A DNA stretch of 64,000 nucleotides from Escherichia coli (GTDB lineage Bacteria > Pseudomonadota > Gammaproteobacteria > Enterobacterales > Enterobacteriaceae). Position 1 is the first letter of the stretch. Each line of letters opens with the position of its first letter. The DNA is taken from NCBI RefSeq assembly GCF_044324785.1, contig NZ_CP172127.1; one strand, written 5' to 3'. This document shows, piece by piece, positions 28,008-31,000 of this stretch. The position numbers were made by a program.

Positions 28008-31000
28008 TGATGGCCGGTATTCTGAAACGGCGATTGTCGTGAGAACAGAATGGTTGCACCAGAATACAGATATAAAAAAACCGACATGACAGTCGGTTTT
28101 TTATTTTTTCCGCCCAAGACTTGGTGGTTCCGGGCAGAAATGAAACAGTCCTCATCTAGCAAGTGAATTATAAGTCAGGATGCCTACATATTCAAACAGC
28201 TATGTTGGCGATACAATCCCGACGCTAGTAGTGATACTGCCTCAAGGGATTACCGCAGTGCGGAAAAGTACTTTTAAGTCCTGGTCAGGATACAGGTGGT
28301 GCTGATTCTGGTGCTCTAATTTGGAGAGAGGCAGTCCTCATCTAGCACATGAAGAAAATCATAGTTACAGGCAACGTAAGGGTAAGCTGTGATTGTCTTT
28401 CTCCCTTAAGGGAGCAACGGATGAAAACTTTTCTCGATAAAGTTCTCATCGTTCTTATGGCGCTAATCGCGCTGCTGGAACTGAAAACCGACATGACAGT
28501 TGGTTTCATATTTATTGCCAAAATGCACACTGTTCATGCCAGATGCGGCGTAAACGCCTTATCCGGCCTACACAATCTTGCAAAATCAATATATTGCACG
28601 ATCCTCGTAGGCCGGATAAGCGTAGCACATCAGGCAATCTAACGCCTGTCATCACCCCGCAAACTGCCTGAACAGCGCCTTACCCTTAACCAGTCGCGCA
28701 CCCAGCCAGCCGCCGAAAAGCGACAGCAGCAGTGCACCGCTGCACGGCAGCACAATCCACAATCGCCAGTCTGGCTCCCACGGAAAATCAAACACTTTCG
28801 CCTGCAACACTGCCAGCGCCGTTTCCGCACCAATTGCGGCTACCAGGCCAGAAACAAACCCGAGCATGGCGAACTCACACCACAATGTCGTGCGCAGCAG
28901 TTTTTTCCCCGCACCGAGTGTGCGCCACACCACCAGCTCCTGATGACGCTGACGCATTCCCACCTGCACCTGTGCCAGCAACAACAACATACCGCAGGCG
29001 GTGACCAGCACCACCATCACTTCCAGCGCCCGACTTACCTGCTCCAGCACCTGACCGACCTGTTTTAAAATCGCGCCAATGTCTAACAGGCTAATGGTCG
29101 GGAACTGGCGGTTGAGTTGCGTCAACATGCCGTTGCCATTCTCCCAGCGGAAACTGGTAAGCCAGCTCTGCGGTTGCCCGTCTAATGCCCCTTCCGGGAA
29201 AATAAAATAGAAATTAGGCCGCAGACTTTCCCAGTCCACTTTGCGCAGGCTGGTCACTTTAGCGCGGAACTCCTGGGTATCGCCCATAAAGGTGACTGTA
29301 TCGCCGAGGGCAACGTTTAAGCGTTTCGCCAGCCCCTCTTCCATCGACACTTCATCGGCTTTTGGCGGCCAGTTACCGGCGACAATCGGATTATGATCGG
29401 GCCGCGTATTTTGCCAGGTAAGATTAAGTTCGCGATTGAGCGCCTCATCTTCATTGCCTTCTGTCGGCTTGCCGTTAATCGCCGTCAGTCTCGCCCGCAC
29501 CACCGGATAAAATGATTCCGGGACTATCTGATGTTCCGCGAGGAACGCTTTTAGCGGTGCTACCTGTTCTGTGGCGATGTTGATTAAAAAGTAGTTCGGG
29601 CTTTCTGGCGGTAGCTGCTGTTGCCAGCGGTCGAGCAGATCGCCACGCAATACCAGCAACAGCGCCAGCAGCATAAAGGAGAGCGAAAATGCCGAAAGCT
29701 GGCTTAACGTTGACCACGGCTGACGTAACAGGCGGCTAACCGCCAGGCGCAGAGGTAGCGATTTCAGCGTCATGCGGCGAAGTACATTCAGCAGCATCCA
29801 GCCCAGCACACCGCACAGCAAAGCCAGTACTACCGCGCCCGCCAGCACCGCCCAGAGCAGCATACTGCCGCCCATTAATCCGGCGAGCAGCAGCACAACC
29901 ACCACACTGACAATCGGCAGATAAAACTTGAGCGGCCAGACGTTCGCGACCACATCATTACGCAATACGCGTAAAGGCTGCGTTGCCAGCAACAAGCGGT
30001 ACGGTCGTAGCCCCACCAGCAGCGAGATGACCGTCATGGTGCCCAGCGCCCACAACCACGGCCAGAGGCTGGCTGGCGGTAGTGCAGCAGGCAAAACGGG
30101 CTTGAGCAGCACCATCAACACGTTTTCGAACAACAGGCCTATCACCCCGCCGGTAACGGCTGAAAGCGCCAGCACCATCAACCACTGACCGACGATTAGC
30201 TTACGCAGTTGCGCTCGCCCTGCCCCCAGCGTTTTGAGGATCGCCACAAGATCGTAGCGACTGCGACAGTAATGATTCATCGCCACCGCCACCGCTGCCA
30301 CTGCCAGCAGCAAGGTCAGAAGCGCCGAAAGCAGCAGGAACTGTTGCGAGCGTTCCATCGAGCGCCCCAGCGCGCCTTCGTCCTGTTCCAGACCGTACCA
30401 GCGTTGTTCGGGTTTAAGCTGGGGTAACAACCATTTCTCATAGCCGTCGAGCTGGTTCTCGTTGCCGCCGAATTTATAGCGCCAGGTGACCCGACTTCCC
30501 GGCTGCACGGCTCCGGTTTTATCGACATCCGCCAGATTCATCATCAGACGCGGAGCCATCTGGAAGGGGTTAAAACCGGAATCCGGTTCCTGAATCACTT
30601 CTCCGGCAATCCGCAAGGTGGCATCACCCACGTCGATGGTGTCGCCTGTTTTCAGGTTAAGCAGTGCCATCAGGCGTGGGGCCAGCAATACGCTGCCCGC
30701 CTGCGGTTTCAGGCCAGGGGGATTAGTTTGCAGATCGCCATACATCGGGTAGATATCATCCACCGCTTTGACGTTCGCCAGCTGCGGTGTGTCGCCTGCA
30801 AATGTCATGGTGGCGAAAGTCAGCTGCTTGCCGACTTTCAGGCCGCGCTTTTGCGCTTCCTCCAGCCACGCTTGCGGCACTTCGCGTGAACTGCGCAACG
30901 CCCGATCGCCCGCCATAAACTCCCGGCTTTGCTGGCTTAAGCCCTTCTCCATGCGATCGCTGATATTGCCCAGCGCCAGCACGCAGGCCACCGCCAGGCT

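Follow-up and report, generated by a model that had tools for sequence, protein, structure and literature searches.

A probable DinQ/AgrB (dql) type I toxin–antitoxin module with a degenerate toxin gene between mnmH and ybbP in Escherichia coli

What lies between mnmH and ybbP

The stretch of E. coli DNA analysed here (64,000 nucleotides of contig NZ_CP172127.1, RefSeq assembly GCF_044324785.1; hereafter the window) carries the convergent genes mnmH on the plus strand and ybbP on the minus strand, and the subject of this report is the 641-bp interval that separates them. In this interval lie an AgrB-like antisense small RNA (sRNA) gene and a divergent, damaged DinQ-like toxin gene, which resemble the DinQ/AgrB (dql) family of toxin–antitoxin (TA) modules of type I, and a pair of repetitive extragenic palindromic (REP) sequences (Table 1). 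Two of its features are duplicated. One is a hairpin with an 11-bp stem, an A-run and a T-run (hairpin 1), of which a near-copy at 28484-28516 (hairpin 2) is 88% identical over 33 nt; the other is the 16-nt motif CAGTCCTCATCTAGCA, whose similarity extends to 22 nt at 91%. Both the motif and the hairpin core occur exactly twice in the window, where shuffled sequences give an expectation of zero.

The sRNA gene is recognised by the Rfam AgrB model (RF02891), which matches 28159->28072 over its full length (model positions 1-84) with 57.5 bits (gathering score, 40), as a member of the DinQ/AgrB (dql) family should; the OrzO-P model reaches just 17 bits on the interval. Aligned with K-12 agrA and agrB, the sRNA is identical in 64-65 of 90 columns and adopts the same two-stem fold, the pairs of which covary across seven homologues. 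Hairpin 1 corresponds to the end of this sRNA, since the family model includes the consensus AAAAAaCCGAc…gUCGGuUUUUUU at this place, and its AAAAAACCGAC..GTCGGTTTTTT is common to the other aligned AgrB homologues (the terminator stem of L021, a lineage with an orphan agr gene described below, was seen separately). The hairpin is bidirectional and may also end mnmH transcription. The agr-like promoter scans as a strong one, and its TATAAT hexamer is kept in L021. That the 49-nt leader preceding hairpin 1 might be the 3' end of an earlier dql gene, as in a tandem array, was considered and rejected, the local alignment score being equalled or exceeded in 94% of shuffles. In the RefSeq records of strains HS and M7424 the sRNA half is unannotated, and the toxin coding sequence (CDS) alone is listed, there and under other matches.

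The toxin mRNA and its damaged reading frame

The predicted promoters of the sRNA and of the dql mRNA stand back to back at 28167-28217. The putative dql promoter aligns with TGTTCA-17-TATAAT upstream of Salmonella dql, and with K-12, and the segment as a whole is colinear with the K-12 arsR-gor region between the terminators of agr and dinQ. The arrangement is the one that T1TAdb, which covers DinQ/AgrB (PMC8594479), uses as a criterion, namely a divergent, non-overlapping sRNA located 5' of the toxin mRNA within 500 nt (sRNA 5' end at ~28160, start codon at 28421). The long 5' untranslated region (UTR) of the toxin mRNA can be described with the elements of the switch model proposed for dinQ (PMC5066626, Kristiansen 2016). 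Predicted folds of the full-length UTR pair sequence 1 with sequence 2 (28236-43 with 28328-35) and sequester the Shine–Dalgarno (SD) sequence, and those of shortened UTRs pair sequence 2 with sequence 3 (28323-31 with 28396-404), that is, an SD-sequestering (3:4) hairpin and mutually exclusive 1:2 and 2:3 pairings are predicted. The 5' end of the sRNA matches the UTR in perfect complementarity over 16 nt (at least 15 nt being the threshold), or over ~25 pairs by hand count when G·U pairs are included. The seed duplex of the window sRNA was computed at -47.3 kcal/mol with its own UTR vs -35.5 with K-12 dinQ, a tighter pairing than in the non-cognate duplexes (-28.6 to -37.9); the corresponding K-12 duplexes are at -58.2 kcal/mol for AgrB-dinQ and -42.7 for AgrA-dinQ. 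The K-12 counterpart of the 16-nt repeat is a 31-nt 'agrAB repeat' through which AgrB base-pairs with dinQ; function has been demonstrated there for DinQ/AgrB, and dinQ is not repressed by AgrA (PMC3567139, Weel-Sneve 2013).

On the pattern of dinQ/agrB and of the pOXA-48 pair dqlB/agrB, a type I mechanism can be proposed for an intact module of this kind. The sRNA would be transcribed from its own sigma-70 promoter, from 28160 to 28072, and end at hairpin 1, and a divergent plus-strand mRNA starting at ~28224 would carry the gene for the hydrophobic DinQ-like peptide from 28421 on. The sRNA 5' end, i.e. motif copy 1 read antisense, would then pair with motif copy 2 in the UTR, which would keep the SD sequence locked in its hairpin and expose the duplex to RNase III, so that the membrane toxin would not be made.

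The toxin half in the window has been damaged by a 70-bp deletion. Intact alleles, e.g. that of HS, encode MKTFLDKVLIVLKALIALLELIRQFIE (27 aa), followed by a GC-rich terminator, which in HS reads GGCCGAAGG..CCTTCGGTC-TTT. What is missing is the end of the frame, codons 22-27 (IRQFIE) with the stop codon, as well as the dql terminator (GGCCGAAGG..CCTTCGGYC) and, from the A-run of hairpin 2, three A's; no Rho-independent terminator directly after the toxin open reading frame (ORF) is therefore left in the window, and past the deletion the frame reads on to 28642, crossing hairpin 2 and the REP pair in 52 unrelated codons. The resulting ORF scores 21.1 bits with the NCBIfam DinQ model NF041472 (profile positions 1-17 of 22), under the cut-off of 30 that the intact 27-aa allele passes with 40.9 bits; the peptide of this locus scores 24.5 with the DqlB model NF041473, the cut-off of which is 35. 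A comparison of 13 full-length homologues, drawn from Escherichia, Salmonella, Yersiniaceae, Klebsiella and Enterobacter, shows K13 and the C-terminal RQFI[ED] to be invariant, and the window toxin has a methionine at this lysine position (K13M). The deletion is real and lineage-wide: its junction recurs in L024, 309 public E. coli contigs carry the identical 73-aa ORF and window positions 23916-31010 are matched at 100% identity by a 7.1-kb scaffold from a metagenome, which rules out a private event or an assembly artefact. Among complete RefSeq E. coli genomes, all 5426 lack the junction. Because an allele with the deletion and K13 retained exists (P0178), the deletion preceded K13M. The truncated toxin is probably inactive, and the antitoxin half next to it reads as intact.

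On the homology of its genes, their arrangement, the sRNA-UTR complementarity, the deletion and the distribution among genomes, all observed here, the interval is very probably a chromosomal DinQ/AgrB (dql) type I TA module with a degenerate toxin half, followed by a REP pair. Its kind is already known, as both the family and the locus are catalogued, the latter by the Prokaryotic Genome Annotation Pipeline (PGAP), and what the window holds is a degenerate allele.

Table 1. Positions in the window of the features of the mnmH-ybbP interval and of its flanking genes
Feature	Position	Strand	Basis or remark
mnmH (selU/ybbB), left flank	26916..28010	+	364-aa ORF; annotated mnmH in homologous HS and K-12 loci
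agr/dql module, as indel relative to module-free alleles	28025..28523	.	499 bp here, 569 bp intact
Leader, mnmH end to hairpin 1, 49 nt	28025..28073	.	present wherever the agr gene is, including L021
AgrB-like antisense sRNA gene (antitoxin), ~89 nt	28160->28072	-	Rfam RF02891 and homology to K-12 agrA/agrB
Hairpin 1, putative intrinsic terminator of agr-like sRNA	28074..28102	.	AgrB model positions ~58-84; terminator scan
16-nt motif copy 1, sRNA 5' seed	28146..28161	-	5' end of Rfam match
agr-like promoter, TTGAAT-17-TATAAT	28167..28195	-	10/12 consensus positions; sigma-70
Putative dql promoter, -35 TATTCA, 17-nt spacer, -10 TACAAT	28189..28217	+	positional homology; transcription start ~28224
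dql 5' UTR, ~197 nt	28224..28420	+	colinear with K-12 dinQ 5' UTR
UTR elements: sequence 1; sequence 2; sequence 3	28236-28243; 28323-28335; 28396-28405	+	dinQ model
16-nt motif copy 2, putative agr-like sRNA target in dql mRNA	28332..28353 (16-mer 28332-28347)	+	22 nt at 91%
SD hairpin, CUCCC-UUAA-GGGAG	28401-28414	+	fold prediction
Truncated, fused dql toxin ORF, 73 codons	28421..28642	+	only codons 1-21 (28421-28483) DinQ-like; K13M at 28457-28459
70-bp deletion junction	28483..28484	.	alignments with HS, M7424 and E1V33
Hairpin 2 and ~15 nt, partial copy of agr terminator region	28484..28523	.	88%/33 nt to hairpin 1; weaker similarity to module edge
REP pair (bacterial interspersed mosaic element, BIME)	28530..28640	.	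inverted arms 28558-28571 and 28607-28620; backbone, not module
ybbP, right flank	28652..31066	-	804-aa ORF; annotated ybbP in homologous loci

Alleles of the slot and alternative readings

The module is carried by 1330 of the 5426 complete genomes, in 1135 of which it is colinear at >=98% identity over the queried 301 bp and keeps an intact ORF; in HS and >1000 further genomes, the PGAP annotation of the locus includes a CDS named 'type I toxin DinQ'. Damage to the toxin half takes several forms. In ~190 complete genomes, including M7424 (L002:3001-3604), 108 bp have been deleted between two 10-mers of nearly the same sequence, AGTCCTCATC within motif copy 2 and AGTTCTCATC at codons 9-12, which removes the sRNA target, the SD sequence and the first toxin codons, and PGAP still calls the shortened gene 'dinQ'. 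In AP027512 (L030:1462-1695), exactly the 478 bp between hairpins 1 and 2 have been lost, i.e. the whole agr-dql unit, with the leader and one hybrid hairpin left behind, which points to repeat-mediated excision. Hairpin 2 with the ~15 nt that follow is probably what is left of a second agr copy, its 3' stump; dql modules in Salmonella and Yersiniaceae lack it. Module-free, REP-only E. coli alleles measure 58, 140 and 240 bp, and the REP pair is also present in two of the module-free alleles, LTC201 and EC17GD31. In LTC201, DE17 and E. marmotae, ...ATTCTG is joined directly to TGCRC..., at what are 28024|28025 and 28523|28524 in the window. The slot is filled in further ways, by a Hcp/TssD-DUF2931 island, by insertion sequence (IS) insertions or, in K-12, by Rhs. 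In AVS0970 (L008:4024-8558) its content is a tssD/Hcp-effector gene of 2 kb together with three DUF2931 genes, all frameshifted, and mnmH is annotated four codons longer.

Comparisons beyond E. coli bear on the age of these states. Across the module core (28126-28375) the window, HS and Escherichia sp. E1V33 show 100% identity, against differences of 2-8% among the three in the adjoining mnmH and ybbP regions (25920-31749, in 250-bp bins), which points to either strong constraint or recent horizontal spread. An Escherichia-like lineage, L021 (positions 1222-1404; Logan SRR31919996), has the leader and an orphan agr gene only between mnmH and ybbP, and no toxin gene. This agr gene scores 47.9 bits with Rfam and is identical to the window at 45 of 46 positions over the seed and the -10 box; flanking CDS are 82% identical, and their third codon positions 60%. 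The -35 hexamer of the L021 gene is apparently provided by the end of ybbP. In E. marmotae (L025:8602-9035) the module-free spacer is made up of four REP/BIME units in tandem, each ~101 bp long, and the same site in Salmonella and Citrobacter is occupied by four unrelated genes, an ABC-transporter cluster. The L021 gene, the E. marmotae junction and the Salmonella and Citrobacter genes together indicate that the module and module-free states both predate E. coli.

An earlier note on this DNA had taken the interval for an Rhs-free state of the locus, either an ancestral empty site or a deletion scar, with its duplicated motifs as possible junction marks. What that note described is there: the interval is Rhs-free and ~640 bp long (neither RhsD-like protein, by tblastn, nor K-12 RhsD-element DNA, by blastn, was found in the whole window), the hairpin is duplicated, with a second copy placed by the note at 28482-28503 and thus close to hairpin 2, the 16-nt motif is present twice, its start positions of 28145 and 28333 being each off by one, and the REP pair exists. 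The K-12 arrangement it described, with rhsD and small ORFs between ybbP and mnmH, is also correct, the annotated order being ybbP-rhsD-ybbC-ylbH-ybbD-ylbI-ylbG-selU(mnmH). The interpretation fares differently once the window is aligned with the K-12 ybbP-rhsD-mnmH region and with other E. coli genomes. Homology with K-12 runs out at the two stop codons, at 28012 for mnmH and 28646 for ybbP, and what lies between, a 7,293-bp RhsD element in K-12 and ~640 bp here, has nothing in common; by this alignment, the two are alternative fillings of one slot bounded by two stop codons, so that the motifs belong to one of these fillings and are not Rhs junctions. An empty or scarred RhsD attachment site has in its favour that K-12 carries RhsD at the same position and that the mnmH-ybbP locus is a hotspot, filled in many different ways. 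Since no part of the 7.3-kb element matches the window, the motifs are accounted for as functional parts of the TA module and truly empty alleles lack all of them, we give this explanation next to no credence, and motifs as Rhs junctions are ruled out. Junctions the hairpin copies can be, although of the TA unit's own deletion, as in AP027512, and not of Rhs. What looked like an Rhs attachment scar is thus a catalogued, RNA-regulated TA locus. Alternatively, the repeats could be generic intergenic furniture (duplicated terminators, REP-like or miniature inverted-repeat transposable element-like sequences), with the AgrB and DinQ matches as relics long dead in all strains: the locus is known from its sequence, REPs adjoin it and it has no LexA box. 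Against this stand the hairpin and motif, which are not dispersed (one place per genome), the invariant core between diverged flanks, the conservation of the seed and -10 box in L021 despite its third-position divergence and the 1135 genomes with an intact ORF, which make it very improbable.

Several observations nevertheless weigh against the dql module reading, or against parts of it: (i) transcription of the module is deduced here from the DNA sequence, (ii) the putative dql promoter has a weak -35 element and was missed by a consensus scan, (iii) the predicted folds of shortened UTRs keep the SD sequence partly paired, (iv) the cognate seed duplex is just a little stronger than that of the non-repressing AgrA-dinQ pair, (v) no credible LexA box was found in the module, the best candidate matching 6/8 core and 11/20 overall positions vs 7/8 and 15/20 in K-12 dinQ, and the position aligned to the K-12 LexA operator holding a 7-nt gap, and (vi) the truncated peptide keeps its hydrophobic core (residues 8-21) and could still enter the membrane. 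LexA/SOS control is ruled out by the lack of a credible box, and the 'damage-inducible' label therefore does not apply. The last point feeds a different view of the toxin half, in which the window module is a working TA pair, the 73-aa fusion still being toxic through its transmembrane core and hairpin 2 acting as a substitute terminator. Besides the retention of residues 1-21, this could draw on the terminator-like score of hairpin 2 on the plus strand and on the frequency of the 70-bp deletion allele (Δ70), which comes with an intact antitoxin and target site. It is nonetheless unlikely, since the fusion falls under the DinQ family cut-off and lacks both of the elements that are invariant in the full-length homologues, transcription ending at hairpin 2 would yield a message without a stop codon, K13M arising after the deletion fits relaxed constraint and the locus has undergone at least three other independent toxin-removing deletions. 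We thus favour a dql module whose toxin half has decayed.

Relatives of the module and other features of the window

The closest point of comparison is dinQ-agrAB of K-12, between arsR and gor, which shares the order and orientation of its parts (an agr sRNA gene divergent from, and not overlapping, the toxin mRNA), a homologous sRNA (Rfam AgrB), a 27-aa peptide (…DK..IVL.ALIALLELIR…) and an sRNA 5' end complementary to the UTR upstream of the SD sequence, with a SD hairpin and alternative pairings. The window differs in having one agr gene instead of two, plus the second-copy stump downstream of the toxin, in its chromosomal site, in the lack of a LexA operator, in its truncated toxin and in a different seed and target, for which weak cross-pairing is predicted. 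The single-agr architecture is also found in Salmonella and Yersiniaceae.

The dql genes of Enterobacteriaceae, a family defined in 2016 (PMC5066626) whose members are found on chromosomes, plasmids and regions resembling integrative and conjugative elements (ICEs), likewise combine a DinQ-like toxin with an agrB antitoxin and have no SOS control; among them is DqlB/agrB of pOXA-48, which is toxic and rescued by base-pairing (PMC12365149). Unlike pOXA-48-type DqlB, the peptide here is scored by the DinQ and not the DqlB model; plasmid dqlB is 67-77% identical to the locus over UTR and ORF, and a chromosomal copy has no plasmid to stabilise. A plasmid source for the window subtype was rejected, only these distant dqlB relatives having been found. 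In Salmonella enterica, a close agr-dql module (L016:3681-4170) lies among genes related to type IV secretion systems (T4SSs), of the DUF3438, DUF2895, RAQPRD and TraG-D_C families, a candidate ICE-like conjugative-element region, and this setting shows that the dql subtype travels on mobile elements. The pairs tisB/istR-1, zorO/orzO and shoB/ohsC resemble the module in their long structured 5' UTR, opposite-strand upstream sRNA and short complementarity (PMC8594479), but have no sequence homology with it. As for the other occupants of the slot, the K-12 RhsD element and the Hcp(TssD)-DUF2931 island sit between the same stop codons and differ from the module in sequence and function, being 4-7 kb of toxin-delivery cargo; they stand in its place and do not flank it. 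No paper on the mnmH-ybbP dql locus, or on its alternation with RhsD, was found in the literature.

Only one point is mildly new, namely that the toxin is lost repeatedly and the antitoxin kept. Three cases, in which the antitoxin is intact beside the Δ70 toxin of the window, intact beside the Δ108 toxin of ~190 genomes and alone in L021, could mean that the AgrB-like antitoxin is kept by selection after loss of its cis toxin, a tentative idea that we consider doubtful. If true, the sRNA would have a toxin-independent job, e.g. neutralising incoming dql plasmids or ICEs (anti-addiction) or regulating another mRNA, and in the mnmH-ybbP slot type VI secretion system (T6SS)-effector islands and a TA module would be mutually exclusive. 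The locus in any case offers a natural allelic series (intact, Δ70, Δ108, Δ478, orphan antitoxin and module-free) usable for studying how chromosomal type I TA systems decay and whether antitoxin sRNAs outlive their toxins.

The remainder of the interval is taken up by the REP pair, an inverted pair of the multicopy, ~35-nt imperfect palindromes typical of REP/BIME sequences, for which the median number of matching places in an E. coli genome is 15 and which is multicopy in every genome. Rfam matches to naRNA4 and ES036 in this region, both under their gathering cut-offs, are ones that we take to be REP-related. Pfam gave no match for the other ORFs of the interval (minus strand: 76 and 62 aa; plus strand: 38-41 aa), and the copy of Pfam used also misses the intact DinQ-like peptide and is thus silent on the toxin.

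Elsewhere in the window, positions 24000-33000 have a best identity of 98.7% over 9 kb to the complete RefSeq E. coli genomes, and exact window proteins are common in draft and metagenome assemblies, e.g. in chromosome-size contigs of 5.5-5.7 Mb; the lineage of the window seems to be missing from the complete-genome set. Positions 44000-52000, with matches to siiEA, the gene of a giant adhesin related to BapA, and to an ATPase of type I secretion, are found in only 958 of the 5426 genomes, with a best identity of 97%. Two further sRNA matches exceed their Rfam gathering scores, STnc480 at 14984-15050 on the minus strand (87 bits) and naRNA4 at 37132-37209 on the plus strand (64.6 bits), the latter presumably REP-derived.

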